In this document: in pieces, positions 5,915-64,000 of the stretch
How positions within the stretch are numbered: the first letter of the stretch is position 1
Layout: the number at the start of each line of letters is the position of its first letter
Assembly (NCBI GenBank): GCA_001600815.1
Contig: BCKZ01000004.1
Coordinates: 620,001-684,000, forward strand
DNA from: Alloascoidea hylecoeti
Lineage: Eukaryota
Direction of reading: 5' to 3'
DNA length: 64,000 bases
Program-made: the position numbers and the translations under genes
Notes under the pieces: model-generated
What the model saw: the letters and a program-made list of their open reading frames with translations, nothing else
What the model was told of the DNA's origin: nothing
Databases searched by the model: none

Positions 5915-8366
5915 TTAAACCCAACCTAATGAATTTTCAGAACTAACAGGTTGTGAAATACTAACTTGAGTTCTAGCACTTCTTGGGGTATTATTAACAA
6001 GACTTGCTAAAAATGATTGATTACTACTACCATTACTGGAAGACGATCTATCAGAATTACCTGAATTAACAGAATAAGTTCTACTAAAAGCTCTTTCTTC
6101 CATTGGTGATCTTAAACTAACTTCAGTCATACCTGGCATTGTTGCAACAATTGAATTTGCCGAAGAATTATCATCATTACCTGGCATTATATTTCTACCT
6201 TGTAATTGAAGTTGTTTAATTGTCTGTTGTTTTCTATAATGACGAATAACTGCATAAACTAAGGTAACATAAGCAATACCACCAACAATTGTACCAACTG
6301 CAACACCAGCTACTTTAGCAGGGGATGCAGTTTCAGCACTATTACCATAACCCGAATCATCACTACTAGCAGCATTTGAACTTGATGCAGTATCAGACGT
6401 ATCAATTGATGTTAAAGAAGATAATGAAGAAGCAGAATTATCACCATTTGTAGTACCAGCAGAATTTGAATTCGTTTCACCAGATGTTAATTTTGAGCCA
6501 GATAAAACACCAACTAATGGAATTCTTGAATCAATTAATGATGCTAAAGTTTTTTCAATTGTAACTGAACTAGTATATAATTCAGAATCTGAATCATAAA
6601 CTAATTTTTGTAAATTTGTAACATCATCAGTTGGATAATAAATTGCAACAATGCTTATAATATAATCTAATTCGGAAGATTCATATGGTACAATTTCTTT
6701 TATAACAATTGAATCAGAATCTGTTAAATTATTTGGACGACCAATTGTATTTGGTAAATATTGAAAAATTTGTGCAACTGTTAATGGATGTGATGAAACA
6801 AAATTATAATTTAATTCTGATGTAAAACCAATACTAATTAATGTTGTATCACTTGGTTGTTTAACATTTGAGTTTTGAGTAATTTTTTTAGGTAAATTTG
6901 TACTTGTAGCCGTTGCACTAGCAGTAGCTTCAGTTTGAATAATTAAGTTTGATGGTAACCAATCACTAGTGGCTGATGTTTCTGAAGACACAGAAGCAGA
7001 GGCAGAAGATTTAGCGCTGGATAAAATTTGAGTAGCACTAGATGTAAATGTAGTACCTGAAGTCGAAGGGGTTGTAGGAACGCTTGTTGAAGCAGCTACT
7101 GTAGAAGATATTGAAGCACTGTAAATAGTTGAAAATGTATTTGAACTCTTACCAGAAGAGTACGCAACAGAGACTCCAGAGGAAGAGGCCGCAGATTGGG
7201 AAGAAACCGCTTGAGTTGACGACAAAATTTTAGATTGAGCACTACTTAATCCTGAGGCAGATGATAAAGCTGAAGCTGAGGAAAGACCTGAAGATACAGC
7301 AGGAGCAGACGATACAGCGGATGCTGATGACAAGCCTGAAGATCTAGCTGTNNNNNNNNNNNNNNNNNNNNNNNNNNNNNNNNNNNNNNNNNNNNNNNNN
7401 NNNNNNNNNNNNNNNNNNNNNNNNNNNNNNNNNNNNNNNNNNNNNNNNNNNNNNNNNNNNNNNNNNNNNNNNNNNNNNNNNNNNNNNNNNNNNNNNNNNN
7501 NNNNNNNNNNNNNNNNNNNNNGAAGAGAGACCTGAAGATAGAGCTGAAGCTGAAGAGAGACCTGAAGATAGAGCTGAAGCTGAAGAGAGACCTGAAGATA
7601 GAGCTGAAGCTGAAGAAAGACCTGAAGATAGAGCTGAAGCTGAGGATAAAGCTGAAGCTGAAGACAATCCCGAGGACAAAGCAGGAGCAGACGAAATAGG
7701 AGATGCTGAAGATAGACCTGAGGACAAAGCAGGAGCAGAAGATAAACCTGAGGTTATAGCTGCGGATGCTGAAGTTAAACCTGAAACTGTTGATAAACCT
7801 GAGGCTGTAGACAAACCTGAAGATAAAGCAGGAGCTGATGAATAAGTTAAAGCTGAAGATAAAGGAGATCCTGAGGAAAGGGCTTGGGTTGAAGACAAGG
7901 CTTGGGTTGAAGGAATAGGTTGGGTTGATTGGGTGAGGGCTGAGGATACGGTGATAGAAGCCGAGGATATCAGAGCATCTGAGGCAGTGGAAGTCTGAGA
8001 CACTTGTGACTGCATTTGGGCAGAATAGTAGGAGGATAGGAAGGAAGCCTTGGCCTCACTCAGAGCAGCACTAAGCGCAGGTTGTGTTGAAGTAGAAGTT
8101 TGTGAAGATTGAGATTCAGGGGTTGAAGCGATGGAGGTTAAGGAAGAAGCGGCAGATGAGGTTTTCACGGTGGTCGAGTTTCCATAAACAGCCAGCTTGT
8201 TGGTCTCCAGATTTACATCGAGGTTGAGTGAATCGTCTCTCAATCTGAGTTTCCGAGATAACTTTTTCATTTCGTCGAGTCTTTTTGAAATGTCGCGGTT
8301 TGGGGCAGCCCAAGCGGCCGGAGCCATGGTGAGGAGGGCGAGACTGAGCCAGGAGGAGTAAAGCAT
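5915..8366 (-). CDS. MSB2: Signalling mucin of the Msb2/Hkr1 family (one gene spanning the N gap)
   Basis: Signal peptide at 8366, long Ser/Thr/Ala repeats on both sides of the gap, HMH-like domain (ISIGF..ELNYNFV...AQIFQYLP), one TM helix (VAGVAVGTIVGGIAYVTLVYAVI) and C-terminal ISQPVSSENSLGW. Confidence 0.85.
7245..7860 (-). repeat. Coding tandem repeat, ~30-bp unit (SSASALSSGL), interrupted by an assembly gap
   Basis: GAAGAGAGACCTGAAGATAGAGCTGAAGCT is repeated from 7522, with degenerate copies on both sides of the N run. Confidence 0.85.
7352..7521. other. Assembly gap (170 N)
   Basis: Run of n characters inside the mucin repeat. Confidence 0.99.
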
Positions 8367-8567
8367 CGAGCCTGGATAACTATAAAAGAAGGTGGAAGAG
8401 TTGGACTTGAAGAGAGTAGAAGAAGAAAAGAGAGATCAGCATTGAAATTGTCACTATACATAGGCTACGATAATAAAAGGCGTATATAAAAATAGTTGGC
8501 ATTCCAGCCTCAGAAGGAGACCCGATCGTAAACCCGAATGCACAGGCAGGCCTGCATACGCGTGCAT

Positions 8568-10576
8568 CTACTGCGGTTGCCGGGCCAACGCCACTTTCGT
8601 CTCCACTTCCAGCAGCAGTACACGCCAAATCTCCGCGACAAACGGCTCCGCGTCTTCCTCCAGCGCCACGGCCATTTCCTCCACCACCTGCCGTGCCGAA
8701 GTGTGCGCTTCCAGCAGGCCAACTATAATCCCCACTGTTTCATCGTCGTCCTCCCCAACGACAGAAACCAGCCCTCGCCTCACCCACGGCCGGATTCCCT
8801 CCAGCATTTCCGAATCCACAGCCTCCCAAACAACTGGAAACCCGAATATTCCTTCGGCATCTCGAGGAATTCGCTTGTCGGCTGCTTCCCGCGCTTCAAC
8901 CACCCGTCGCGCCTGTTCTGCAACACTAACTCCTCCCTCTTCCTTCTCCACAAATACTCCAATATTGTTGTTTTTAGTACCTGTGGTATTACTGCTCTTC
9001 AGCGACATTTTGATCTTACCTCCAGTACTGTGTAATAATGTATTTTTAGTACCATGTTTGTCATTAATCTCTTCTTCCTCTTCTCTATTATCCTTTTCAA
9101 TCTCTCTCATTCTGAAATTTATTCTTTCTTTTAACCATTTAGCATGATCATAGTAATATTCCAATTCCTTCGTTTCTTTTTGTACATCGTCATCAAAACT
9201 TTTAAAATATTCAATATCTTTTTTTCTTTGAATGATTAATTGTGTTTCATACTCTTCAAGTCTTTGTTTTTCTTTTAAATTGGATCTTTGAATGTTCATT
9301 TCTCTATTTTTCCATTCTCCTTCTTTAATTAAAAATCTTGATTCAATTAAATCTTCTTCTTTATTAATTCTTTTCATTTCAACTTCATAATCATCTTCAA
9401 TATCATCATCATCTAATTCTGTTTCTGAATCAGTATCTGAATTATCAATATCCATATCATTTGTATTATTATAATCTCTATCAATAAATTTTTTTTTAGA
9501 ACTTTCTTCCCTTCTTTTTTTCATTTCTTCTTCAATTTTTGCTTTACGTAAATCATACCATCTACCTTTATCTCTAAATTGTAAAATTTCTTCTCCGACT
9601 CTTTGTTTTAAATCATCTGGTACTTTTTCTAATCCAATTGATATTGGTTCATTAATAATTGGATTTTGAATTGTTAATTCTTCATCTTTAATTATATCAA
9701 TTATACCTGGTTTTTCATACCAATTTTTTAATTTTATATTAAGATTTTCAATTAAGTTTTTAAAATTTGATGAATCTTTTGAAAATTGTGATTGAATTTG
9801 ATTTATATTTTGATTTATATATGATTTTGTTGGTTCTTCCATATGAACAATAATATGATTTTTTGTATCCTCTTTATCATTTCCATCTTCTTTATCATTA
9901 ACTGTAGGAATTTCAACAATTTTAAAAATTTCATCAATTAACCAAACTCCTAAAATATCATTAAATTTAACAAAACAATTATTTGTAACTTTACCATTTA
10001 AATCTCTAATTCTACATAAATTTTCGAAATTTGGTATTAATTTCATCAAATTTTCTAATGTATCATTCCTCATATTAATTGGTATATTACTTAAAATTAT
10101 AATATTTAATTTATCTTGTTGATTTTTAGAAATAAATGGTGCTATTTGTGTTGAATAAAATTGTGATAATGGAATTGAAATAGTTATTGCTTTATCTCCT
10201 TCATCTTTGTTTTTACTATCATTTGTTTTGGTGATGTTTGGTGTAATATCTGTATTCACCACTTCATTATTGTCATTATTGCTATTAGTATTAACATTTT
10301 GTTTAGGAATATTGGATTTAACAAGACTTGGAATTTGAGGAATCATGCCAGGAATAACCCCAATACCTGGTATAATCCCTATATTATTATTATTGTTTGT
10401 TACTGTTCCAGGAGTTTGGAATGGAAGCCCAGGAATCATTCCATTATTATTAATAGCTGTTTATATTAAGTTAGTTTTATTTCTTTATTGGTTATAAAAA
10501 AGATATAATACATACTCGGCAATCCAGGAATTCCTGCTGGTAATCCAGGTATTCTATTAGGCAATCCAGGAATCAT
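8568..10576 (-). CDS. SNU71: U1 snRNP-associated PWI-domain protein (Snu71/Usp107/RBM25 family); intron 10457-10515
   Basis: Exon 1 MIPGLPNRIPGLPAGIPGLP, GTATGT donor, ACTAAC branch and CAG acceptor join in frame to the 623-aa ORF. RRM-like N-terminal part, charged middle and C-terminal PWI domain (FGFPVVW...IRPWVRRGLVSVVGEDD...FVAEIWRVL). Confidence 0.82.
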
Positions 10577-30794: not shown

Positions 30795-33700
30795 TCAATT
30801 GCTTGAGATTATAACGTATTCAGTTACTGTTTTAAATCTTTCAGCCATTAATTTTAAAGCAACAAGTAATAATTCATTATAAATTTTAATACAATCATCA
30901 CTTTCCTGTAATTTTTTTAAATTTTCAGAATCGAGATACCAAATAACACTTTCTGCCTCAGCAACTAAAGAAGTTAGTGAAGTATCAATATTGCCAAATT
31001 CTGAAATGGGACAAGAAGTATTCAATGAATTGTTATAAAAAAATGATTCACCAAATGCCGTACCAGGTAAAACACTTTGACTAAATGATCCTGAATCAAT
31101 ATCAAAATCTGCTCTTAATAAGCCGGATTCGACTATAAAAAATCTAACTGGCATGCCGGGCCTATAAATTATATGGTCTTTTCTTATAACCAGTTTCGTT
31201 AAAAATGGGCTTAGATTTTTCCAAAATTCTATAGGTTGGTCTGAAATATCCTGTAATACCGTCAACAATAAAGGCAAAGGTTCTTTCCATTGATTCAGGT
31301 TTGAATCGGCTGATGTTTGTAAATATGTATCTTGCTGTATAATTGAGTTTGCAGCCTTACGAACAAAATTATTTCTTGGCGAATTAGAAAAGTTGGCTAT
31401 TGAGAAAGCCCTCATTGGATTATCAACCTTTAGAGGTTGGCTTGTAACCGACAATGACCCAGCATTTCCATTACCAGTATCCTTTATAGTTAATTCTCTT
31501 AATTGTGACTGCTGTTCATAATGATCGCGATGAGTGTAATATGTTGTTAAAAATTCATTTTCACACCATTCTAAAGTTGAATTTAAATCAGTAAATAACT
31601 GAACATTAGAGTAGCATTTATCATTTTCTTCTATTTCCCCTTTAGGTGAAGATTTATCATCATCTAAAACACCAACTGCTTTTAAGCCAGATAAAACAAC
31701 ACTGTTTTCTTGTACAGATGAAATAATTAAATATGATCTATTTGAAGCAACAAGTCTTTTAACTCTTGTGAAAGCTTCAGCGGCAGAGAAATCAATATCA
31801 GTTACATCGGACATATCCAAAATTAAATATCTTATTGATTGTTCAGGATTATCAAACAATTCTAAGATAAATTTTTCTGTCTGAACGATTTTTCCAAAAA
31901 ATATTGAGCCAGTCAACTTTAATAATTTAATTTGTTCTCCAACTTTTGTTAAAAATCGTTTTTGAAATGCTGGTCTACGTACTAAAGATCTTGCATTAAT
32001 TCCCGAATGGGTTGCTCTAATACTTTTATTTTGTGATTGTTGAAATGTAAATGTAATACATGCCATTATTATACCAATAACAATTCCCAGAACGAAATCC
32101 AAAGCACCCATAGAAACCACCATCACAATAATTGTGATATATTCAAATTTTGAGACTTTATGATATGGTTCAATAATACTTTCAACTAGTAATTCTAGTC
32201 CAAGAAGAAATATAAGAGCGCCAACTACCATAATTGGAATATAGCCAACAACAACTGGACCAATAACCATAATAATACCAGTACCAATTGCTAGCATAAC
32301 ACCAGCTAACCGGCTATCAGCCCCAGAACGACGAAATAAAACACTATTTGTATATACAAGATAATTTTGAATACTACCAATCATACCCGATAGAACATTT
32401 GAAATACCGTGAGCGACTAATTCTCTATCAACATCAACCCTATCCATTTCAACAGACACAGCTAAAGCAGGAACATTAATTGGAACATGCAATATACCAA
32501 AAAATGTCAATGCTAACATTGTTGGGAAAGTTTCAAGTAGAACATTCCAATGAACCAAACGAAAGTCAAATAAGCTATAAAACTCATACCATGGTTCATT
32601 TGTTGCAGGTAAATCAAATAACCATCCATTGTCTCTTGCTTTTTCAATTGATAACCATGGAACAGCGGCGATAATGATATGAAAAACCGCAAAAACAACT
32701 ATAAAATAAGCAGGAACCACTATTGCATTATTGTTAAATTTTTGTACAAAAATTAAAAGAATTGCAAGGACTAAAGGTGTAAACCATTTAATGAAAGTGT
32801 CAAAATTTAAAAACAGTTCGGTAAATGTAGCAAGATTATATTCCAATGAACCAGATAATCTTGAAGAAACTTCAATTCCAGTAACAACTAGAAAATAACC
32901 AATACCACCAATGCAACCAACCAGTATGTGTCTTGGGAAAAAGCCAATTAGCTCGCCCAATTTCATATAACCTAAAATGAAAAACGCCACACCTGTAACT
33001 ACTGAACTAATACAAAAAGCGGTAATTGTAGTGGCTAGAATGGCATCGGGTTGATCAGTTCCGATTTTATACATAATTGAAAGAGCCATGCTATGGAAAA
33101 ATGGGGTGACTTCGATCATTTCAGAACCAATACCAACAGCAAAGGCCGAACCACCAAGAGAATAAACCAATTGGGAGACTATGCAACTAACATAAAACAT
33201 TGATAGACCGGCGGGGCCAAGATGACTAAATATTGGTTCACCAATTGGGAACATAATCATACCATAAGATAACCCATCTAAAATATTTAATAAAACACCG
33301 AGAAAAACAGATGGGATGAGTCTAATTGGCTTTATTATGCATTCATCAAGAATTGTTTCTTTATTAATAGTTTTTAGTTTTTGGCAATTTGATAAGAATT
33401 TTGATTTAATTGTTGGCATTAATGATTCCTCATCTGCTTCCAGATGTACCGAAATATTTGGAATAGAATCTGAATGTGATGGGCGAGCTGAAGGTGAAGT
33501 ATTAGTTGGAGATAAGCTTCCATTGTTGGTTGATTGGACATTATAGTTGTTGCCTGCGTTAGATAAGTTTAACAAAGGAGATGTTTCATTTATATCATAG
33601 GCATCGGTAAGATTATCATTTCTATTGGTTATTTTAAACGGGTCCCTCATATTTCGGGGGGACAGTTTTTCAGGCCTATCCAGCATATTCGAAAGCTGGG

Positions 33701-34189
33701 ACTTATGACTTGGTGTAGGATGGAATTCGCCTTTTCTTTGGGATGAATTTGTAGCCACTGGGATTGAGGAGGTTGGTGGTTGGGTTGAAGAGGTCGATGT
33801 TTGTTGTTCGTCATCTTGATCAAATATTGCATTGCCGAAGACATCATTGCTTATGTTTGCGCTCAAAGCTAAATTGGCAAGTTCAGCTGTTTGTTCTCTG
33901 ATGGAACCACGAGAGTGAACAGCTGGTAAGGAAGATGAAGAAAGTGGAGAGTTATCTATAACCCATAGGGTAAGAAAATAGGTTAGTAATTAAAGTATGA
34001 AAAATTGAAAGATACAAAGAATTTTTACCTACTATTTCTATTACTGAGCGAGCCATAATAAAAAGACCGACCTATTGTACTACCATAGTTTGCAAATAAA
34101 GCGTCCGATAACGAAGGTTTGTGGCGGCCTGGACCTGAGGCCGACAGACCCTCAAGAGAATTTTCGGAGTGTGAGTTGTCTTGGCTCAT
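30795..34189 (-). CDS. VSB1: SulP/SLC26-family transporter with STAS and cNMP-like domains (Vsb1/Ygr125w type); intron 33956-34032
   Basis: LLNILDGLSYG, GSEMIEVTPFFH, FFGILHVPINVPAL, GSIQNYLVYTNS, STAS IDFSAAEAF. Exon 1 MSQDNSH..., GTAGGT donor, TACTAAC branch and TAG acceptor join in frame to SIREQTAELA. Confidence 0.88.
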
Positions 34190-45433: not shown

Positions 45434-50965
<5,532 letters not shown>

Positions 50966-52441
50966 ATTGTGAGGTGATATTTACCAGAAAAGATCGTGAT
51001 TTTAAGTTTATTTGGTGATTTTTCGTTGAGTTTGAAAAATAGACCACTAAATGAGTCGACAACAACAGAATCAATATACAACGACAATCAAATGTGTGTA
51101 CCAGCAATAGAAAAAATTCTTTAATGTATGTAAAAAAGAAGATTAATGTTGTTTTTTCGTGAGACGGCTGATTTAAAGAGAGAAACTGGTGAACCAACGA
51201 TGAGGAAGCTGGTGGAGTGTGAGGGATGGCAAATGTTTAAAGTGAGGCAAATTAGTATCTTGAGCTTCTCGTGACCAGATGTGCGCCCAACCTGCATTCA
51301 ACTGGGTATATATCAGAATCCCAATACATCCTTTGTTAATCTTTTACATGATTCCCAATATTTAAAACTTACTAGATAGTATTTAACTGAAAAATTCACT
51401 CGTATAGTAGAAAGTCTCTGCCTCGTAATTTTATATCTATATTTTTGTGCTTCTCTCTCATTTGTATTTTAGTAAGTTCTTGTTTTACCTACTCCACTCT
51501 TTCTTGGCCATTTACAAAATATAATCTGGCAAATAATCTTAAAATAAGTGAACACCGTAACACTTTAACATATAATAAGATGAAACTATGAGTTAATCCT
51601 TCAACTGAGAACTCATTAACATTCCATTCTCAATTCAGTACCTACTTCTACTTCACTCCTCTGAGCTCACATCAGTAGGAGTATAAAACCTCCGCTTCTT
51701 CTTTATCTCTCTTTTGTTTTCTCTTTTTGTTTTCTCTTTTTGTTTTCTCATATCCATTGTATCTCTTTATCTTCTTACCATGTTATTTTATTTTTATTTT
51801 TATTTCTATTTTCAAATTTTTTTTATTTTTTTTTTTAACTTTTCATATATTTTCCAATTAAATTATATAACTAGAAACCATGTAAATTCTGAGGAAATCT
51901 CTACTATATATAGTGAAATAAAAACCTCTCTTTCTATTCTTCTTATTTTTGTGTATTCTTGACACTCTTCTTTCTTCCCTTCTTATGTACCTAGACCACC
52001 TTTAAAGTAAAGAATTTTTTTTTTTTTTTTGGATATATTTTACTTTTTCAAGTTTTTAGATATTAGAATCCCCCAATCAATCTCATTTAATATTTGTGGT
52101 GGTCTCCCTGCAAATCTAATATTTTTCCTTAGCTGTATGAGGTCACAGTCATGGAGAGCGATGATTGTAAAGGAACCCACGGTCCTATAGCCATGGTCAT
52201 GTACTTCTTATGGATTCTATTCCAAAACACATTTCACAGTCTTGAACTAGCTCAACTCAAGATATATACATTTGTATTTCATTCTTAACGCACATTTAAT
52301 ACCTTATTATTTCATTACTTCTAGGACTTTCTATATTAATAGCCTTTGGGATTTAGCTATATAAAGATAAGTTAAATCCCAGTTACATCTATTGTAAGCT
52401 ATTAAGTCATTAGTAGCTTACCCTACAACGATAATAAGGTT

Positions 52442-52513
52442 GCCTCCTTAGCTTAGTGGTAGAGCGTTGCACTTGTAATGCAAAGGTCGGCGGTTCAATT
52501 CCGCTAGGTGGCA
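52442..52513 (+). tRNA. tRNA-Thr (anticodon UGU), intronless
   Basis: GCCTCCT/AGGTGGC acceptor stem, D-loop AGTGGTAGA, anticodon arm TTGCA-CTTGTAA-TGCAA, T-loop GGTTCAATTCC, followed by a T-rich Pol III terminator. Confidence 0.96.
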
Positions 52514-52532
52514 TTTCTTTTTTTCCTTTTTT
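52514..52532 (+). terminator. Pol III oligo(T) terminator
   Basis: TTTCTTTTTTCCTTTTTT immediately 3' of the tRNA. Confidence 0.8.
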
Positions 52533-53845
52533 AGAATCATCAATATCATTATAACCTCACAAATTTTAATGGATGCTTAGGAAAACTTTGAAATCAAAAA
52601 CGGTCAAGGTGATCCACTCTCATCATCGTTGTTTGTTATAGGATAGAAGGTATTATTACAATTGTGAATCAAAATGTCTCAACAACCTATAAACAACAAT
52701 CTTTTTAGATGATTATATAGTTTTTGTTCGTAATAAACGAGACCATGTCAACTTAAAACATAATGGGGGAATCCACAAAGTTATTAAATTTGGAAGTTAA
52801 CAACAATATTCTATTCAATGGCTATTAAACATCCTCCTTTACAATTACCTTTAAAATATTCTGAAAAAAAATTAAAGGATGGATTCTATCATCTAGGTAT
52901 TTCGATTCTAAATGCGAAAAGTGATTTGCTTATCAAAGATGTTAAAAAATCACTAAATAGAACAGTTATTAGAGACTTACCATTAAGTGAAAGAGCTATA
53001 GCGATTAATGTCTTCATTCTGTCAAAAATTCATTATCACGCCTATTTCTAGTCACTAAAGAATTCAGAAATACAAGACATTCAAAAAGAGATTAAAAAAA
53101 TACAATAGCAATGATTCACTGTAGAGCAACTTTACAAGGCTTATGTAAAAATGAAGTCGATAACCATGGACATTTTGAAAAAAGGCTATTTCTTCAATAC
53201 CATTGGTATTATCCAGTCTGTAAATATAAAGCAGACAATTATCAAACAACCCCAGAAGAAATATTAACTCATATAAAAACAAACAAGAATGAAAAGAAAG
53301 AAGAAAAATGTTTTCAAAGGGGATCAAAAACTTACTACTCAAATAACAATAAACCAATTATCCCAAAATGGCCTGATACCATTAAATATAGAACTGAATT
53401 AGAATGGAAAAATTGGTGGAGAATCCTCCAAAAAATAAATAATAAAAAACCAGGTGGTGTCGATTTCCTACATAGACTAAGTTTAAGAAATTACTAGACT
53501 CAAATATCCACTATTGAAGATGAAAATAACCTAAGTTTCAAAGGAAATGGAAAAATAAATCATTGCATATTATGTCTGGAACCAAATGTAGAAACCGAGA
53601 AACATATATTCAATCAATGTAGAATAAAGACAATAATATTTGAACATTTTATGGGAAAAGATTATCAACTAAATGAAATGATTTGTGATTCCACAAGAAA
53701 CACAAATGAATTAATTCCAATCAACAATATAGGAGAAGCAATTAGAAAATCGAGAAACAGAAGAAGATTCGGAACTACAACATTAGAATCAACAGACAAG
53801 GAACTTTTAACTGCAGTGAAAGCTAAGATTAAAAAGAATCAATAA
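52533..53845 (+). mobile_element. Decayed, 5'-truncated L1-clade non-LTR retrotransposon ORF2 (RT C-half plus zinc knuckle)
   Basis: In order across stops and frameshifts: FEIKNGQGDPLSSSLFV (52587), FLDDYIVF (52702), FYHLGI, LPLSERAIAINVFILSKIHY, WKNWW...DFLHRL and CILCLEPNVETEKHIFNQC (53564). Confidence 0.82.
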
Positions 53846-54888
53846 TCAGTACTTGTAATCATACAAATTTATGACATATTCTTAAATATTTATTTCAATC
53901 AACAAAATTAACTTTCTATAGATCAAATTTAATAGTCTAGCTTATATAGTTATACTTTTAATATAAAATAATGTATGGAAAAATTGCTTTCTGACATTTT
54001 TTCCTAATTCGGTAAATTGGGTATATGGGTTTACTTTATCAAAACAGTTATATTGTAACAAGAAAAGCTCTGTAATAATTGTAAAAGAAGAAAATAGCCA
54101 GAGTACCTTGATTTGGATATCTAAGAATATAGTAGACAGTGATTTTTAAAAAAATTCAATCTTAAGATACAAGTTATGCTTATGCATAATAAAACTAGTG
54201 TCTGAAAACTTTCTACGAACAAAATTACGATCGTCTTAGAGAAGAGTCTGAGTTAAAAGGACAATTGCTTAATCCAGTTACAAGTTATGAATGTTAATAC
54301 TTACAAGTGATCTACAATTCTCTATATTATCTGGACAGATACTACCGTGTGGTTAGTTTACTTTCATTACTAAATCATATTTACCACAATCAGATATAAA
54401 TTTTAAGTTAATATGCTTGAACTGGTATCACCTACACTGTAGGTCATATAGCAAAAGTTGTAATAATAACAATAAATAATAAATATGGAACCTCTACTGA
54501 CCTATTAAAATCGGAATCCATTAAATCTGAAAACTTAAATTTAATTATAAGTTAAAACAAAGGAAAATGCAAGCATTTGTTGGAATTGTGTTCTTGTTTA
54601 GTTCATAAAAGGTACTGACTCTAGTACAGCATTAATATTGCAATTTCAGCCAAGTTTAAAATAGAAGGGTCATGATGAGATGATGTGGCTGACTATTTTA
54701 ACCGTTTTAAGCATTTTCAGTATAATTATTTCCTAAAACTGCCATCATCGATCTAAATATAAACGTGAATTCAGCAAGTTAAAATAAATGTATATAAACC
54801 GTTTTAGTGATAATGACCTTTCAAAATGACCAACCATTATAAAAGCATCTAATGAACCTACTTTATCGATAGTTATTTACAATTACAA

Positions 54889-55425
54889 ATGACTTCAACT
54901 AGTAAAATAATTGTCCCCGCTAAAAGTATCACTTCATCAAGTAATACTACCAGTTGCATTGCTGATATTAATCATACACATGGCATACAACAGAAAATGT
55001 TCTTTTCTCCTATTTACCTTTCCAAACTCATATACTCAGGCTTGATTATTGGCAATAGTCAATCGCCAAAAGCTGCATATATTCAAAATATGCACCTTTC
55101 AACAGAAAATATCAAAATGGAGAAAGATTACTATAAAATATCTATAGGTTTGGAAAACACTCCATATCATAAAATTTATAGTCTTAAACTTGATTCATAT
55201 CCCGAAAATCGAATTCTTATCATTAATTTAGAGATTATTTCTTATTTATATAAACTATTACCACTTAAGAGATTATCACCTGAAAGGTATTTAGTACAAC
55301 TGCCAAATGATATTAAATGGAAAGAATTGGCTTCAAAAAGAATACATTTGGAAATTAATACTGAAAATGATACTAAGTGTATCTTATTTGTTTATTTGCC
55401 CGCTGCGAGTGTTTATAAATTATAG
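54889..55425 (+). CDS. Hypothetical 178-aa protein, possibly a divergent HSP20/alpha-crystallin domain
   Basis: ACAAATG start and 178 open codons. Beta-strand pattern EKDYYKISIGL...RILII...ERYLVQLPNDI...ILFVYLP resembles small heat-shock proteins. Confidence 0.5.
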   Translation: MTSTSKIIVPAKSITSSSNTTSCIADINHTHGIQQKMFFSPIYLSKLIYSGLIIGNSQSPKAAYIQNMHLSTENIKMEKDYYKISIGLENTPYHKIYSLKLDSYPENRILIINLEIISYLYKLLPLKRLSPERYLVQLPNDIKWKELASKRIHLEINTENDTKCILFVYLPAASVYKL

Positions 55426-57595
55426 TTAATTGAATAATCTATACTTCTACAATATAAATAGTAACAAAAACTCTCTCCCTAATAATGGATTAGGGCTTGA
55501 ACTAAACACTCAGTTTGATTGATAACAATTTGTGAGTGAAAGTAGCGATAGGAAAACTATGTTCTTTAATTATATACGCTAAAATGGTACTTATTCCCAA
55601 AATTCTACTATTCTACCATGATCTGACACTTTAAGTTTAGTCTTTAGACGAGCGAACGGCTGCCACTCTATGGAGTATTAGGATATCCTTATAATTATCC
55701 ACCACTCTATACAGTAAAGTACGACCACCTTTTCAACCCATAAGATAAAACTTACTGGCCTAGACTTCCTTATGTTATAAATATATAAAGTTCAAAACCC
55801 TGACCTGATAGTCGTCGAGCTTGTCCAGGGCCTGGATCCGTATTATGAAGCTACCGAATATTTGAGTGACTTGTAACACTACGTATACCTCAAACATCCT
55901 AAGTCCATTTTAATCTATCTTTAGACCATATATTCTGTTTCTTTGGTTCTTCTGGTTTGAAGAAGGCCTTTGAAGAGCGCAGAAATCTTCCTTATATACA
56001 GTGGGGTTTTAAACCTGATTTAAAACATCAATTCTAAAGTAAAGAATATGAAATAAAATGATATTCAGCTTCTCTATCTCTCCGTGTACCTCTATACAAA
56101 AATTTAGTAGTTTATATGGCCATATTTGAGTTCTAAAACTAGATTAAGTCACTTTGACTTAAATGTTATAAACTTGTCAAAACCCGATTGATCTAGTCTA
56201 TCCCACAACTCTAGAAACACATCTAAATGATAATTATTGACCTTTTGACACACCCTCTCACAATAGCCAAATTTGGTTACTACTTACCCAGTTCAATCTT
56301 GAGTTTGGACAACATGTTTTTCATCGGGATTTATGTCTAGAATCCTCACAACCTAAAGTAGCTGTTCCATTTGTCTACCTGAATCTCTTGATTTATAGAC
56401 TAAAGGATTATTCCATAGAAAAATATAGCTTTCAAAGGTTTGAATAATAGGTATTTCTACCCTTTATAATGCATTTTTGATATTCACCTCTGAAATAGTC
56501 CTTTCCTTTATTCTCCGCAAAAACTAACGAATATCGCGCGTTTTTTCGTTGGGCCTTTTGTACTTCACTTATTATGCTCTTATGCAATCTCGAAGATGAC
56601 CTTCGGATTTTTTCAGTTTGGATTGGTATACTCTATAATTCAAGTAGATTTGTAATGAATGCAGACGTGCCTTGCAGTCCACCAGTGGCTGTATTCGAAG
56701 TTTCAGCATAGTTATGTCTTAATCCGAACAAATTAAAGAGGTGATACCTTTACGCGTAAGTCTCATTCATATTTCGAATGGCCAAAAAATATTAAAATTT
56801 GGATGAGTTATTCTAAAAGAAGATGATGGATAGTTTTACGCGTAGCAGGAAAAAAAGATGTTAGGAGTGTGTTTTGTATATCCATGTTTTTTGGAAGGAT
56901 TCTTAGGAGGTCTTTGGAATGGTGTCCAGAACCAAAACGCAACTTTAGACCTGACCCAGCTCTAGTTGGTACATTAAACAAACAAAACAAGTATAATCGT
57001 TTTCCTTAAATTAGCATTTATCGCTAGTTACTTGCCAAAAGTTTCCATATTATTTCTCAAAAATATCGCTATGTATATATTATTATATTGTAGTTTCTGC
57101 ACAGCTGGCATAAATGCATTGACGAGAATTTTAAATAGGACTCCCTGGTAACTGATGAAGTGAATTCTTTACCTCTTCTCCTAACAATAAGTCCGGAGTA
57201 AGTGTCTACATCGATATCTAAATGGAACTGTATCCTTAGTATAATATCCATTGAAACTGGAAAATATAACATAATTTAATTGTAACGTAAAATGCATTTG
57301 AAATGTCTCTTAGATGCTCAAAGCACAATAAAGTTAACTCAAAACGTCAAACTTAAACTATGCATACATGCAGTAAAACCGTTGCCATGATGAGTTTCCG
57401 GAGTTTCCAGAATGTATGTTCCGGTCTAATTGAACAATTGGGATAATAATTATAAACATTTCTAGATCTTTTCTTTTGAAACATTGTCTTATGTCTCTGA
57501 TTTTTTCTGAAGTTGCTCTTTTAAGTTAGTTCTGAACAGTTGAACACATCATCATTATTCCTCAATTACCCAGCATTCCATAACTCCGGTTCAGA

Positions 57596-60286
57596 ATGAT
57601 GACTTTTAAACAGACTCCAGATTTCTTATACTCCACAACAACCAGTGGCAGCAATAGGTTTAGCACTCCAGAAATATCATCTGGGGTAACATCAATGTAC
57701 ATTCCAAGTACCATTCTAGTTTCTAAAGTGAAAGGTTTAGAATTAGAGCTACATAGTGCCTATCTTCAACTTCATAGTTTGCAGTCTCAGTTGCAAAATG
57801 AGCGCCTTAAACAACATGAAGTGGAACGACAATCATATACCTACTTGATTTATAAGTTTCCCTCGTTCTCTTTAGACTCAAATTTTAAACAATTTCTATT
57901 TGCAGCTCAACAGGAATTGGTTGGAAAGATTTATGATGGGCATGAAGTATATCGGGCATTATTAGCTGCAACTGATAGCTATTCTACCAAAGCATTTGTT
58001 GAATCTTCACGAGAGATAATTGAAACATTTGACCATCATCTTGATTTTATTGAATGGTTAGAAAGCTCACAAAACAGAAATTCGATTGAATATTCAAAAA
58101 ATCAGCACAACAATTGCATGAAGTTATTTGATATAGGGGAAGCAACGACTTACGATGACTGTATTAGAATTATTCAATATATCAGTAATTTACAGTTTCT
58201 TAGTTTCGATGTGAAATTCATACTTCAGTTTATTAATGAAAAATGCTTTTATAATTTCCCTTCGGTTCGTCATGTTATAGAGAATGATCTTAAAAATATG
58301 ACAAGAAGTGATACTAGTACATATCGAAATATAAAAGCATATCTCCCTCATCTCAAAATAGAATTGCAAAAACTCGCCACATCAGGATCAATAGAACCAG
58401 AAATTATGAATAGTAAAGATTTCAGGCTCAATAGTATCATGGATAAAAAAGATAATCAGTCATCATTTCAAGACAAATTTGTAGGATCTCCTATTATTGT
58501 CGGTCAACGCGGAGCATTAATTACAAGAAAAGGAAGCTCAGGCTCCAGATATTTAGATTTCTGTAAGACAGTTTCTGACCAAAGATTCTATGGGAAATCA
58601 CCACCTGTTATGGAGGCAGGCCACTGGTCTGGCGTCAATTTCAATGTTTCAAAAGTTGATAATAAAAATACTACTGAACAGGAAGCCGACCCAATTTTCC
58701 AATTTTCAACCACTGATAGTTACAACTCATCATTTTCAAGGCCTATCAACTCATTTTTTGAAGAGCAAAATTCGATCTCTAACGCTGGTCCACTATCAAG
58801 AAACACTCCTGATACTACCTTGGATTACGCACCAGTCGAATCCATAAATTGTCAAGACAGTGGGGATTATAGTTATAAGGAACATGACTCCTTTTTTTCA
58901 AAGGAGGAGAGCATTAAGGACAATGGATCCAAATACAAAAACGACAAAGACATCGATACTGATAAACAGAAAGATATAGTTAGTGGGGATATTGAACTTA
59001 ACACAGAAAAATCAATTTCAACGATAAATGATAACAAAAGCATCAAACTTAATAAAAGAGAAGCGAATTTGAATCGAAAAGAAGTTAATCTCAAAGAAAG
59101 AGAAGCTAATACTAATGAAAGAGAAGCTAGTCTTATTGAAAGAGAAGTTAATCTCAATGAAAGAGAAGTTAATATCGAAAGAAAAGAAGCTGATCTTGAG
59201 AAGAAGGATATTAATCTTGACAAAAAAGAAATCAATCTTGACAAAAAGGAAGTCAATATTGATAAGAAGGAAGTTGAACTTAACAAAAGAGAAGTGAGTA
59301 TTGGCGAGAGAGAATCTCATCTAAATATAAAAGCAGAAACTCTTAAGAAAATGGAACTGCATCTCAAAGAAAAAGAGTCTGAGCTCGAAGAAAAGGTATC
59401 CAATCTCAAAGAAAAAGAATCTAATCTCAAAGAAAGAGAAGTTGATATTCATGAAAAGGAAAAAGCTATTAATTATAAGTGTCAGGGGAGTTCTGAAAAA
59501 GGTGTAGAAGCAAGTTTGTTTAACAATATCTTCGATGGAGACAAGCATAATGAGGAAGGGCTGTTAGCATCTATTCACAATGAGATTTCAGTTAAGGAAT
59601 CATCTTTTTCAAAAGTTGTATTATGTCTGATTGATAACCTTCCTAAGCATAGATCCCATAACTACGCAGGCGCTCTTGTTGTAATTGATAGTTCCTCTAA
59701 AGGTATCCACATTTGGCCTACTCGCCATAAACTGAGTACTGGATTAATACTTAAGCTATTTATCGAACGTTTTATTCCCCTGCATGGTGTTCCTTCAGAA
59801 GTTTGTAAATATGGATCTAATTTTCCTCTTGATAAGGATGATAACTTTAAAAAGTTTTTTAGTTATGCCGGATCAGCATGTAAGACGACAAATGCAAATG
59901 ACAATGTAAGCATAAGGAGGTCGAAATCAAATTATAAAGAATATTCTTTCCCAGATATGATCATAAGTTATATTCGTTTCTATGCTTCAAAATTATCTGA
60001 TAGTGAGTGGCCAGATTTTATGAGTCTGGCAGAATATACAGCCAATGCATCTTCATATGATTGTTTAGGAGATCGTACTCCTTTTGAAGTTCTTTATGGT
60101 AGCATTCCTTCATATCCTAAGGCTTTTCCAAAATCCCGATCAAACTTTCTATCATCTCTATCTACTGGTGAAAATTTGGTTTATAGGCTAAACTTTTACG
60201 GAACTAAAGCCAAAGCTGCTTTGAAATTTGCATCAGAAGAGTCAAATCTTGACGAATGTTCATTACCTCGTTTGCAAGCTCAATGA
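57596..60286 (+). CDS. 896-aa protein with heptad coiled coil and C-terminal catalytically degenerate Ty3/gypsy-type integrase core
   Basis: Intact ORF. C-terminal FSKVVLCLIDNLPK...GALVVIDSSSKGIHIWP...LHGVPSEV...YIRFY...EWPDFMSLAEYTANAS...TPFEVLYG follows the Ty3/gypsy integrase pattern. No protease, RT or RNase H motifs seen. Confidence 0.8.
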   Translation: MMTFKQTPDFLYSTTTSGSNRFSTPEISSGVTSMYIPSTILVSKVKGLELELHSAYLQLHSLQSQLQNERLKQHEVERQSYTYLIYKFPSFSLDSNFKQFLFAAQQELVGKIYDGHEVYRALLAATDSYSTKAFVESSREIIETFDHHLDFIEWLESSQNRNSIEYSKNQHNNCMKLFDIGEATTYDDCIRIIQYISNLQFLSFDVKFILQFINEKCFYNFPSVRHVIENDLKNMTRSDTSTYRNIKAYLPHLKIELQKLATSGSIEPEIMNSKDFRLNSIMDKKDNQSSFQDKFVGSPIIVGQRGALITRKGSSGSRYLDFCKTVSDQRFYGKSPPVMEAGHWSGVNFNVSKVDNKNTTEQEADPIFQFSTTDSYNSSFSRPINSFFEEQNSISNAGPLSRNTPDTTLDYAPVESINCQDSGDYSYKEHDSFFSKEESIKDNGSKYKNDKDIDTDKQKDIVSGDIELNTEKSISTINDNKSIKLNKREANLNRKEVNLKEREANTNEREASLIEREVNLNEREVNIERKEADLEKKDINLDKKEINLDKKEVNIDKKEVELNKREVSIGERESHLNIKAETLKKMELHLKEKESELEEKVSNLKEKESNLKEREVDIHEKEKAINYKCQGSSEKGVEASLFNNIFDGDKHNEEGLLASIHNEISVKESSFSKVVLCLIDNLPKHRSHNYAGALVVIDSSSKGIHIWPTRHKLSTGLILKLFIERFIPLHGVPSEVCKYGSNFPLDKDDNFKKFFSYAGSACKTTNANDNVSIRRSKSNYKEYSFPDMIISYIRFYASKLSDSEWPDFMSLAEYTANASSYDCLGDRTPFEVLYGSIPSYPKAFPKSRSNFLSSLSTGENLVYRLNFYGTKAKAALKFASEESNLDECSLPRLQAQ
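59057..59463 (+). repeat. Coding 21-bp tandem repeat ([RK]E[VAS]N[LI]xE heptads)
   Basis: Units such as AGAGAAGTTAATCTCAATGAA, AAAGAAATCAATCTTGACAAA and AAAGAATCTAATCTCAAAGAA. Confidence 0.85.
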
Positions 60287-60530
60287 AGGCTAAGGTTATA
60301 ATTTTCTTGTATATTAACTTAAATTAATGCACCAATTCCAAGTATTAGTATTGAATATTAAAATGTTAACATTTAATTATAGTGTATTTGGAAAGTTAAT
60401 ACAAATATTCTCATATAGCTAGCGCTAATCGTCTTATATAGGCCCTATACCATGCTCATATAAACTTCTAATTATCTAATAATCTGGTATGGTTAGCTAA
60501 ATATAAAAAATAAGGAATACCGTTATAGGG

Positions 60531-60577
60531 TACATACTACATACTACATACTACATAATACATAATACATAATACAT
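60531..60577. repeat. Short 7-bp microsatellite (TACATAC/TACATAA)n
   Basis: tacatactacatactacatactacataatacataatacataatacat. Confidence 0.8.
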
Positions 60578-63500
60578 ATGCATATATTCTTATAGGGTGA
60601 ATTGAATATAACGTTAACCATTCGCACACTATTGTTATTCAACTCACCTTATAGCATACCAAACTTGAAACTAAAGCACATAAAAGACGCAAGTAATCTA
60701 GTCTAGCAATTTGGGATAAAATTTGAGCCCTACTAAATTCTAGTAGAGTTTAAAATAAGTGATCAACTACAAGTATCAAAATAAAGTAAGTATGTCTATC
60801 TATTTATTCTATACTTAATTACTTAATGTTTTTTGTTTCTCCTCTTTAAATTTCTTCTCTCTAGTTCCGTTGATCCTTTTCTGAGGTTCAAATATAAATT
60901 TCCTTTTAGAACCCTTTGGGTCTTTCATCTGTTTCCTATACAACAGATCTATAGACTGTTACCTAGGGTTATCGGGATCCATATATTAAAATTGCAAGAA
61001 AATATAAAAATTAAATTAATATGCAAGATACGATATCGCAGTATGAATTTCAACCCCACTGCCGTTAACGTTGGAATATTAATCAATAGTAATTTAATAC
61101 ATATCTATCGCACCGATTTAAACGGTTCTCTAGACTCTTGAGTCTAGAGTTTAGCTTGAAATGATTATATATTACGAATCTTTGCGATTGCAATTGGATT
61201 GTGTAAATGTAGGGCCTAAATGCATAGTTATAACTGGGTAGTTTATTGCAAAAAAGATATAAATATGGAAATGCTGCTTCGATTAACGTCGATCATGATA
61301 ATATTTAAAGTAATCTGGAAGCACTATACGTACTATATTAACATAGATTAAGTAACTGCTTAATCGTCGGAATATTTCAGCACTTAAAGTTCTATAGCTA
61401 TGGTACGAATTACTATACATATGCATAGGAATATATTAATGTCCATGATGCTAATTATGGCATAAGTATATGCCATACTATATATTATATATACATACAC
61501 CATCTGTTGGTCCATACCGTATAAGTATAACAACTAATTTTATTATTTCAAAAGGGTGATATCGATTATCGAAATAGATCGATATACATGTATTGTACTT
61601 GAGATCAGGCGCGGCTTTCAATTGAATGCCATGATCATGAGGCTTAACACTTGGTGAGATAATGACTACTATATATATTTGGGTACCCCAAAGCTCATAT
61701 GCATATATAACATGACTAATATTGCTATAACAGTATAAGAATTATAATCAAAGTTAACTCCACATATTACGTAATACGTATAAGCTTATATTTAAATTTA
61801 GCAAAGTCTTGGGCCCTGCATTGGCAAACTACGATAATATGTATTAAACAGTTAAGCTTGGGCGATTACCAAACACTGTAAACAGGTAGTTTTAAAATAT
61901 AGCGCTATATATATATATATAGCTATATGGTATCTAGTGAACTGGATGGGGTACTTTGATTTGAATTTTGTGGTGTACCTCTTCTCTCTTACATATTTAA
62001 TATAAAAGTATAGATATTTTTGGTATACATGTATCAGCTAGAAAAAACTATTTGAAATTACATACCGTAACTTCTAGTTCGAATTCATATAATTTAAATT
62101 TTAGACATGAAAACGGTCTTAATTATATAATTATCTATATGCATAATAGTTGCATATGCATAGCTATAGGTTTCTAATTCTATTTTCTGTGAAGCTATTC
62201 CCCAAATTGTGGTGAGAGACACTGATAGTTATGAGCTTATGAAGATATAGTTGAATACACGGAGTGAAAAGTGCCGAGCCTATATATTTTATGGTAGACT
62301 TATATCAAATATTATCAATCCAAACGAAAATCAATTATCAAAAGCTTGGAGGCGTTTGTTACAAGATCTAGAGTGGAATATAAGGCCCTTATTAATATTA
62401 ATGATCTGAATTTGATCATCTTTCAAGTGCCTAAAATATAACGTTTTCTTGTGAATCTGGAATTAATGTTAGATTCAAGTAAAAAATATTGCAATCCATA
62501 AGTTATTTATTGTAGTATAAATTTCTATGATAGAATATATATGAATAATATGATACTACTGTATATCTAATTAATAGTAATATTGCAATTGGTTAACGTT
62601 ATAAGGTTGGGAATGCTTACTATGTTAAATTCATAAAACCGTTTACGCAGCAACCACATGATTTCACAAATTAACATAGATATTATAGAATAGACTTCAG
62701 CTTAATATATTAATTACCGTATTAGCTTATACTGGTCCGGTGTGTGGAATCTATGAATTAATAATACTGTAGTACTGGGTCCACTGACTAGTTATTAGTT
62801 AATAGTAGTTAATAGTTACGTATGATAGTAATAAAATATGATATTGATGTTGCGATATTTACATATGCTCCTAGGTCTAATACTATACCTTTTGATTATA
62901 ATTATTATACTGGCCTTATCATGGTCACTTTTAAGTGACAACACTGACAGTCTGACAAGCTTAATTTAGCACTGAGTCCAGTAAAGACTGCCATAGGCTA
63001 CTCTACGGCAGTACTACTGTATAACAACTGACAATTGCAACAATCTTAAAAAGACTCTTAAATTCTTATAATAAATTATCATCTAATGTAATATTATCTA
63101 TTTTATAATTTTTTTTTTCTATATTATAATGATAGCTGGTCCTCTGCAAGTGTTGGCTGTATCCGTAATTAATAAATAATTATAAGCTTTTAATTATAGA
63201 TTGATCAAATTCATGATTAACTGCAGCATAATGCTTATAGGAGGCCCCTATTATCACTACCATGAAATTGCTGGATATGCAAACTGCCAAAAAAAAACAG
63301 GGCAGATTTAAGATGCACCCGTACTGTATTTTACGTGTGGACTAGTCTACTACTGTCCCGGGTATCCTTCTATACACTTCAAGCTTAAAATATACCTAGT
63401 TGCCGGTAATGACTAAATAGACCCCGAATACCCGATACGGGTACTACCGGTTCCTTGGTTTTCATTTTGGCGGTTTTCATTCTGGCAATTTCACGGTATA

Positions 63501-64000
63501 GCTATTATTAAGGTAGCTACTAGCTAGCTAAACGATGTAGATCTGAATATCGAAACCAATAATAATAAGTAGGTGAGATTCAATTGCAACATGATATAAG
63601 CTTATATTACTATATGATAATATAAGGCCTTATATTTATAAGATCTTGTATATAAAAATACAGTTACATTTAATTTTCTAACCCACAAGAGCGCTTGAGT
63701 AGGACTTTTTTTATAGTTATTTTCCTAGTTACCTTGCGCTGGCTCTGTTGCGGTCGTAAATTAACCAAGACCTACCGTATATTAAGAATCATGGTTAGTC
63801 AGTTTTAATATAATTATAAATTTATAATGAGTATTGCAAAATTGGAATTACTGCCATATGTTTGTTTCATTTTCAAGCCAGGTACTTCAGCTTATGAATC
63901 ATTTTAATTAGATTTAATAGCAACTACAATGTATATATAACTATAGCCACTATTAATCGGGTTATACGAATTTATAGATATATTTAATATTATTATGGAG

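Follow-up and report, generated by a model that had tools for sequence, protein, structure and literature searches.

A putatively domesticated Ty3/gypsy gene in Alloascoidea hylecoeti that joins a Gag-like region to an integrase core probably unfit for catalysis

Described relatives and how the locus compares

Among the described systems closest to the locus reported here are GIN1 and GIN2, single-copy vertebrate genes whose core is related to the integrases of long terminal repeat (LTR) retrotransposons; the parts of the published account that deal with them give their function as unknown and the catalytic triad of GIN2 as doubtful (PMC3424704). According to the same parts, the GIN genes keep the HHCC domain and derive from GIN DNA transposons (PMC3424704). 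Our subject is an open reading frame (ORF) of 896 codons at 57596–60286 on the forward (+) strand of a 64,000-nucleotide stretch of Alloascoidea hylecoeti DNA (assembly GCA_001600815.1, contig BCKZ01000004.1, positions 620,001 to 684,000). We call the whole stretch the window and use its coordinates throughout. The ORF resembles GIN1 and GIN2 as an apparent host gene with an integrase-like core, and it shares with GIN2 a doubtful triad. The two GIN genes, however, carry the HHCC domain, occur vertebrate-wide and have neither a Gag part nor a repeat, whereas the ORF lacks HHCC, includes a Gag-like domain and a 21-unit repeat, and has no orthologue among the sequences searched. Going by the published descriptions, it is also set apart by its source, which looks like a true Ty3/gypsy element, unlike that of the GIN genes.

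Fungal host proteins offer two further comparisons. Fob1, the replication-fork barrier protein of budding yeast, has an integrase-like core (PMC3575427, citing Dlakic 2002), which the relevant part of that account places in the GINGER2 transposase branch, apart from Ty3/gypsy integrases (PMC3575427). Fob1 resembles the ORF in being a host protein of a fungus whose integrase-like core serves binding rather than transposition, as we propose for the ORF. On the other hand, Fob1 is kin to GINGER2, whereas the 21 matches of the ORF that we scanned with Pfam are all retrotransposon Pol proteins or fragments of them; the architectures, compared by description, differ as well. The CENP-B-like proteins Cbp1/Abp1/Cbh of fission yeast are presented, in the portions concerned with them, as pogo-derived proteins whose triads are degenerate and whose action, in the silencing of retrotransposons among other roles, is by binding (10.1101/2022.12.06.519325; PMC10799480). 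They and the ORF have in common that they are fungal, apparently domesticated enzymes of the DDE (Asp-Asp-Glu) type with degenerate triads, but the fission yeast proteins derive from DNA transposases with helix-turn-helix DNA-binding domains, whereas the ORF appears to combine a retrotransposon integrase core with a Gag-like part.

Capsid-derived proteins form the remaining group. In mammals, Fv1 and enJS56A1 are proteins of this kind that block a related element by co-assembly. In yeast, a Gag-derived protein, p22, is described as a trans-dominant inhibitor of Ty1 in the part of the source devoted to it (PMC4599808). Ty1 p22 is encoded by an active element, with a part of whose Gag it shares its whole sequence, whereas the ORF is old, highly diverged and stand-alone, and carries an integrase core in addition. 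Arc/dArc1, PEG10, RTL and PNMA are animal genes that Pfam Gag families recognise, and some of them keep a protease. What may link them to the ORF is a Metaviridae capsid fold in a host gene, dArc1 being tied for the best fold match of its N-terminal bundle; the ORF differs from them in having no Pfam Gag match, weaker structural support and an integrase core as partner domain.

An open frame with a Ty3/gypsy integrase core

The frame runs for 896 codons plus a stop, starting four codons past an upstream stop, and is uninterrupted, as an earlier note on this DNA had stated. The other five frames over the same 896 codons contain 40, 45, 63, 75 and 125 stops. The DNA of the ORF has 34% G+C, in a window of about 30–37%.

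Several searches show that the C-terminal part of the encoded protein (P0001) is truly homologous to the catalytic cores of Ty3/gypsy integrases, the relationship that the earlier note had read by eye. The homologous domain, expected to have the RNase H-like fold, spans residues 662–848 (59579–60139, +). When residues 629–896 were compared by phmmer with 1.84 billion protein representatives, 206 proteins matched at E≤0.001 and four, the query included, at E≤1e-10, all covering query positions ~30–255; the best match other than the query itself had an E-value of 1.3e-19 at 27% identity. The top 16 matches, scanned with Pfam, all have rve at the matched place and always alongside gypsy-type domains: Integrase_H2C2 in 15/16, SH3_Tf2-1 in 11/16 and RVT_1 in 6/16, the rest being fragments. 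Five more matches that were scanned are likewise retrotransposon proteins, one of them (P0028) a copia-gypsy chimera. Against all PDB chains, the top match of the same residues was the integrase core of Ty3 Gag-Pol (7q5b_A, residues 1164–1337; E 0.0016), and a tblastn search with eight gypsy polyproteins against the whole window picked out the core region at 59546–60253.

Profile searches gave a divided answer. Pfam rve (PF00665) gave no match even at E≤10, whether the query was the whole protein or only residues 629–896. A hidden Markov model (HMM) built from 152 integrase cores, with the ORF left out of the build, scored 93.2 bits on residues 662–848. No known integrase is more than 30% identical to the ORF. 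Since Pfam misses the core of the ORF, domain-based screens may under-count diverged domestications; one screen for fungal co-option gives the retained transposable element domains by Pfam accession and, from that part of it, appears to be based on Pfam domains (PMC10799480).

AlphaFold2 gave a confident model of the C-terminal part, with a mean predicted local distance difference test score (pLDDT) of 81.6 and a predicted template modelling score (pTM) of 0.77, from an input alignment of 54 short integrase matches. The model has the strand–strand–strand–helix–strand order of an RNase H-like core. Foldseek ranked the foamy-virus integrase core first (E 8.6e-9, TM score 0.70 to the target) and also returned the Ty3 and Rous sarcoma virus (RSV) cores; rve clusters made up 22/30 of the language-model neighbours of the domain, at values up to 0.93. 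Behind the core, the alignment and positions 228–254 of the model define a C-terminal helix at residues 856–882 (60161–60241, +). This is the helix that precedes the SH3 domain in gypsy integrases, and the ORF stops before any SH3.

The remaining hallmarks of a gypsy element are missing, as had been noted. In the ORF protein, Pfam detected no protease, reverse transcriptase (RT), RNase H, HHCC (Integrase_H2C2), SH3_Tf2-1 or Chromo domain. In the window, tblastn with the eight polyproteins returned nothing beyond the core at 59546–60253 and one match to a Gag region, hence no relics of RT, RNase H, protease or SH3. Searched over 7 kb on its upstream side and 3.7 kb on its downstream side, the ORF has no flanking LTR or terminal inverted repeat (TIR); the direct and inverted repeats in 50000–64000 are chance-like and none exceeds 41 nt.

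A dismantled active site on a conserved scaffold

Alignment of the ORF with 152 cores showed where the active site has changed. The column of the first catalytic Asp holds Asp in 147/152 cores, and the ORF has Cys677 there (VVLCL; codon 59624–59626, +), on strand 1 of the model. In the Glu column, where 141/152 cores have Glu, the ORF has Tyr783 (NYKEYS; codon 59942–59944, +), with Glu782 adjoining. Both replacements had been proposed in the earlier note and are upheld. The same note also took the second Asp to be lost (VCKYG), which is probably wrong. Three MAFFT alignments and a profile alignment place D746 ('LDKDD') in the corresponding column (Asp in 151/152), past a 7-residue insertion; two pairwise alignments alone put Y739 or K738 there instead. 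According to the MAFFT and profile alignments, the insertion follows strand 4 within residues 738–746 (59807–59833, +), a segment that ends with Asp746, so the second catalytic Asp is probably kept but displaced. Read in this way, the triad is most likely C-D-Y. The label 'catalytically dead' is thus likely to fit, two of the three catalytic residues being replaced, with the reservation that one Asp has probably survived.

The losses are clustered. Of the 39 columns conserved at ≥80%, the ORF keeps 20, whereas the other cores keep 36 at the median and never fewer than 22. Divided into four blocks, which were chosen after the data had been seen and make the comparison a descriptive one, the columns kept number 0/5 in residues 659–677 (linker and strand 1, with the first Asp), 12/15 in residues 682–751 (scaffold), 0/10 in residues 765–793 (catalytic loop and the first part of the Glu helix) and 8/9 in residues 794–838 (scaffold). 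The structural motifs are therefore retained, as the earlier reading had it. Such clustering is the pattern expected if the fold, and not catalysis, had been under selection.

A Gag-like domain, a linker and a seven-residue repeat

The N-terminal part of the protein appears to make the ORF richer than first proposed, since we consider it likely to be of Gag origin. The candidate domain, a Gag/capsid-like helical region at residues 90–203 (57863–58204, +), was delimited by phmmer, language-model neighbours and a fold match. Residues 42–153 of the gypsy polyprotein P0024 match ORF residues 92–202 by tblastn (E 5e-5). In a set of 153 proteins, phmmer aligned ORF residues 90–203 with residues 40–154 of P0024/P0152 at an E-value of 1.8e-5, whereas none of 20 shuffled queries did better than 0.041 in the same set; a pairwise BLASTP of P0024 against the Gag-like part gave 3e-6. 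The match is collinear. P0024 is a yeast-type gypsy polyprotein of 1,432 residues with its protease starting at about residue 275; the matched part precedes the protease, a position that makes it the Gag region of this polyprotein. Residues 1–300 have as language-model neighbours foamy-virus Gag (0.89), RTL6 (0.88), Retrotrans_gag (0.85), Ty3_capsid (0.84) and PNMA (0.81), although all of them (range 0.80–0.89) lie under the 0.9 mark and count as leads only. In the AlphaFold2 model of residues 1–300, a long predicted helix at residues 38–87 (57707–57856, +; pLDDT about 52–87 by 10-residue blocks) comes before the Gag-like bundle.

A linker rich in S, N, D and K follows at residues about 263–483 (58382–59044, +). 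We detected no family in it: it has no Pfam match and no match to gypsy Pol proteins, and the pLDDT of the model is <50 from residue 264. The linker leads into 21 tandem 7-residue (21-nt) units with the consensus N-L-N-E-K-E-V at residues 484–630 (59045–59485, +). Position 2 is L or I in 20/21 units and position 7 is V, I or A in 13/21. The repeat is probably helical, and to judge from its sequence it might serve as a spacer or form a non-canonical bundle. The ratio of nonsynonymous to synonymous differences (pN/pS) among adjacent units is 0.57, a rough value with pS near saturation. The only Pfam match in the ORF falls on the repeat: RNase_Y_N, with 32.6 bits, at the cut-off, which is a charged-helix match. 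The precomputed Pfam list of the protein collection for P0001 gives PF27881.1 beside PF12072; PF27881.1 was absent from the scans made here.

A host gene and its possible action

Taken together, the evidence supports the origin of the ORF well and makes its status as a host gene probable. As to function, we would put money on a gene that the host has retained for use, with some reserve. Our fuller explanation is tentative as a whole: the ORF would be a host-resident, apparently single-copy, non-catalytic gene assembled from both ends of an ancient Ty3/gypsy Gag-Pol frame and acting as an inhibitor of related elements. From the element it would have kept a capsid-like helical domain (~90–203) and the integrase catalytic-core fold (662–848), whereas protease, RT and RNase H are gone, together with the HHCC finger and the SH3/chromo tail. 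The Gag-like and integrase parts are now bridged by a linker, predicted to be disordered, and by 21 charged, probably helical 7-residue repeats. The active site has been dismantled by Cys for Asp, Tyr for Glu, erasure of the catalytic loop and, probably, displacement of the second Asp. The frame has stayed open despite 2.4–3.6 changes per site in DNA of 34% G+C, and the residues of the fold have been kept; from this we infer selection on the protein. Since the scaffold is conserved and the active site dismantled, the protein would act by binding and not by cutting DNA.

For retroviral proteins, self-association is an established property of capsid domains and integrase cores and of long helical repeats. 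That all three of the kept modules would self-associate leads us to favour a mechanism of co-assembly. In this proposal, the protein would co-assemble with the Gag and the integrase of related elements and thereby poison both, as a trans-dominant inhibitor similar to Ty1 p22. We advance this mechanism with some hesitation, rating its chances as somewhat below even. Its most specific form, in which a host-encoded restriction factor has captured both modules, enzyme-free and linked by an expandable helical repeat, and strikes both particle assembly and intasome formation, is a long shot. If true, no organism would have an earlier described retrotransposon restriction factor that is built on an integrase, let alone on Gag and integrase combined.

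Transposons are few in budding yeasts, many of which are without RNA interference (RNAi). To our knowledge, few host-encoded defences against retrotransposons are known in them; Ty1 p22, the control studied in most depth, is a product of the element and not of a host gene. An enzyme-free gene that stands alone and has capsid-like and integrase-core folds would be a natural candidate for a host-owned inhibitor, and it would be a rare fungal case of retrotransposon-integrase domestication. A literature search of limited extent found neither a domesticated Gag-plus-integrase gene nor a restriction factor of this kind, and the architecture of the ORF, a Gag-like domain, a repeat and an integrase core, would represent an unusual form of transposon domestication.

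Points that weigh against this explanation

A number of observations speak against the explanation just given, in whole or in part, and they begin with the N-terminus. The Gag match comes from a single 90% cluster (P0024/P0152), and the Gag region of P0024 retrieved only itself among 637 candidates in a word-based homologue search. No Pfam Gag family was found in the whole ORF protein or in either half. The AlphaFold2 model of residues 1–300 is poor (mean pLDDT 53.3), residues 40–160 forming a helical bundle at 65–87. In a comparison with 48,161 chains, the dArc1 capsid shares first place among the fold matches of this bundle (6tap_A: Z 6.1, rmsd 3.0, 76 aligned residues; 6s7x_A: Z 5.9), but Z-scores below 8 are common for helical bundles, so that 6.1 is within the chance range. 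Foldseek found nothing for the same model (best E 0.3).

The core and the repeat call for restraint too. The fold match of the core is in part a confirmation and not an independent proof, the input of the model having been an alignment of integrases and the fit thus being partly built in. A broken triad alone is nothing special: 13/152 ordinary cores deviate at one or more triad positions. In the repeat, the hydrophobic spacing is 2/5, unlike the 3/4 (a/d) spacing of a classical coiled coil. The 'heptad coiled coil' of the earlier note consequently keeps its periodicity of seven, in 21 units, but with the hydrophobic residues at positions 2 and 7 it lacks the a/d spacing.

Relatives and trees provide further reservations. 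Neither an orthologue nor a paralogue closer than ~30% identity turned up in the protein libraries and metagenome contigs searched. The word-based homologue search with the whole protein returned the protein itself only, 0/283 candidates were shorter proteins related to residues 30–300, and none of 83 pattern matches in metagenome contigs was confirmed by tblastn. As no orthologue was found, neither synteny nor the ratio of nonsynonymous to synonymous substitution rates (dN/dS) backs domestication. The terminal branch of the ORF is the longest of the 153 rows in FastTree (2.42; the median of the others is 0.40, and none of them exceeds 1.68), and in IQ-TREE, with 46 rows, it measures 3.56 against a median of 0.66; a branch as long as this, 5–6 times the median, could reflect relaxed constraint. 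FastTree places the ORF within a 15-member clade (support 67) whose two named members are proteins of the yeasts Metschnikowia and Ambrosiozyma. IQ-TREE, which used the better model, put it outside a 12-member core clade (support 99) without a firm position. The approximately unbiased (AU) test did not reject the yeast grouping (p 0.665), the constrained tree being 6.0 log-likelihood units better, and a yeast gypsy lineage is a plausible donor on these sequence comparisons. Lastly, as the ORF exceeds 30% identity with none of the known integrases, it is uncertain whether its product could co-assemble with the elements of today.

The domestication proposed earlier therefore stands as regards the origin, the missing LTRs, the two replaced catalytic residues and the open frame, and it falls short as regards orthologues, of which we found none.

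Alternative explanations

The strongest competitor shares the host gene with our explanation and differs in the role. The protein might serve the cell apart from any control of transposons, as a chromatin, nuclear or cytoskeletal scaffold in which the domains are oligomerisation or binding modules at either end of a long charged helical spacer, comparable to the pogo-derived CENP-B-like proteins of fission yeast. By this analogy it is possible though rather unlikely; we regard it as nearly as likely as the inhibitor, and an element-borne ORF, a relic and residual catalysis as less likely. It draws on the same structural evidence, and the ≤30% identity to any element integrase, which speaks against current co-assembly, sits more easily with it. 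The ORF lies in a gene-poor, AT-rich stretch of roughly 14 kb, and fungi are known to have domesticated transposases whose DDE triads have degenerated (10.1101/2022.12.06.519325). Nevertheless, the HHCC and C-terminal DNA-binding domains of integrases are missing, and we found no conservation beyond this organism, an uncommon situation if the protein were a core scaffold of the cell.

A non-autonomous or otherwise unusual mobile element is harder to sustain and seems to us unlikely. It would be an internally deleted gypsy derivative (Gag–repeat–integrase) mobilised in trans, still selected as an element or recently dead, whose long branch represents an unsampled lineage and not evolution within the host. 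An internal deletion predicts that both ends of the Gag-Pol frame are kept, as they appear to be; the neighbourhood holds repeats and a putative relic of a long interspersed nuclear element (LINE), and the lineage is poorly sampled. Against this, the ORF has none of the terminal or long repeats sought over the 7 kb upstream and 3.7 kb downstream. Four sequencing runs from three studies contain the complete ORF; no RNA run is among them. In the contigs of organism A (run X2), one contig of 7,837 letters spans 54063–61892 with 0 differences, and no second look-alike contig (≥80% alike) of the ORF was found. The depth over the ORF bins equals that of this bridging contig alone, 7.5, next to about 7 for RPB1, contig depth not being a copy number. 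The region 51338–54005, in contrast, gathers many variant X2 contigs, with indels and joints, at a summed depth of 24–448. The one bridging contig without a look-alike suggests a single copy, but the argument comes from contigs of X2, which is possibly the source of the window, and this counts against our explanation as well. Runs X5 and X6 yielded only identical pieces of ~200 letters, too little to inform on polymorphism. The contigs of the sister organism B (X9) gave no nucleotide cover of the ORF or its flanks and matched RPB1 only, at ~83% identity. In addition, with the first Asp, the Glu, HHCC and SH3 gone, the protein could not integrate DNA, and no related copy was found in the 1.84e9 protein representatives or the metagenome contigs.

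We give still less credence to a functionless, decaying relic whose long frame has by luck not yet been stopped. The ORF is indeed an orphan, without orthologues found and on the longest branch of the tree, in a gene-poor and repeat-bearing region. Its relative synonymous codon usage (RSCU) has a correlation of 0.87, intermediate between 0.94–0.97 for host genes and 0.44–0.72 for intergenic DNA, and did not discriminate well between gene and relic. However, an unselected frame should be riddled with stops after 2.4–3.6 changes per site, as the 40–125 stops in the other five frames illustrate, the erosion is focused on the active site with the scaffold residues kept, and the model folds confidently.

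That the core is still an enzyme, using D746 in the second-Asp column, E782 beside the Glu column and D680 three residues past C677 as alternative acids, is very improbable even though shifted acidic residues are discussed for GIN2 in part of one account (PMC3424704), for the catalytic-loop block is unrecognisable (0/10 conserved columns in residues 765–793), D746 is displaced by the 7-residue insertion, and the ORF lacks the HHCC and C-terminal domains that an intasome requires for its assembly.

The neighbourhood and the rest of the window

The window is AT-rich, intron-poor and eukaryotic, and it consists mostly of ordinary genes, among them RPB1, a 2,531-codon RasGAP, a sulfate permease, a biotin-protein ligase, an amidase and a peroxidase. 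The ORF had been described as lying amid decayed elements. This applies to a LINE-like relic beside a tRNA gene at 52.8–53.9 kb, but the remainder of the window holds ordinary genes. The tRNA-Thr(TGT) gene at 52441–52514 adjoins frame-broken ORF pieces at 52788–53845 with a weak zf-RVT match (E 0.0064), which look like the relic of a non-LTR (LINE-like) retrotransposon. The many variant contigs over 51338–54005 imply that this tRNA/LINE family is repeated in the genome. Rfam returned the tRNA alone in 50–64 kb. Downstream of the main ORF, the X2 contigs break at 61892–61932 and 63300–63325, and the summed depth is 13.9 at 63344–64000; the breaks and the rise in depth are hints of further repeats.

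Some 11 kb flanking the ORF (50216–57595 and 60287–64000) are without an ORF of ≥150 codons except for the frame at 54856–55425, in a window that is otherwise gene-dense. This 189-codon stop-to-stop frame contains an ORF of 178 codons at 54889–55425 (+), 2.2 kb upstream of the main ORF, for which no Pfam family was found (best E 0.41). A TACATAA microsatellite of ~7 copies lies at 60531–60578, roughly 250 nt 3′ of the stop of the main ORF. TATA-like and poly(A)-like motifs next to the ORF were considered as expression signals and discounted as too frequent in AT-rich DNA.

Farther away, the RPB1 frame (45434–50215, −) enters the Rpb1 domain-1 profile at its position 118. The first exon of RPB1 probably lies upstream behind an intron, and the organism would thus have at least some introns. 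The sulfate permease (30795–33989, −) comprises Sulfate_transp and STAS, with a C-terminal cyclic-nucleotide-binding match below the Pfam cut-off (22.7 vs 27.5 bits). At 5915–8435 (−) and 7348–9147 (+), long overlapping stop-to-stop frames of 612, 363, 269 and 227 codons, all without Pfam matches, adjoin an ORF with a PWI domain.

The genetic code can be judged from the ORF itself, which has only six CTG codons, at residues 588, 656, 678, 713, 729 and 811. Four of the five integrase-core CTG codons stand at columns dominated by Leu or hydrophobic residues (at residue 729, Leu in 121/152). An alternative decoding of CUG was set aside on this ground, and the alignment suggests that this yeast reads CTG as Leu.

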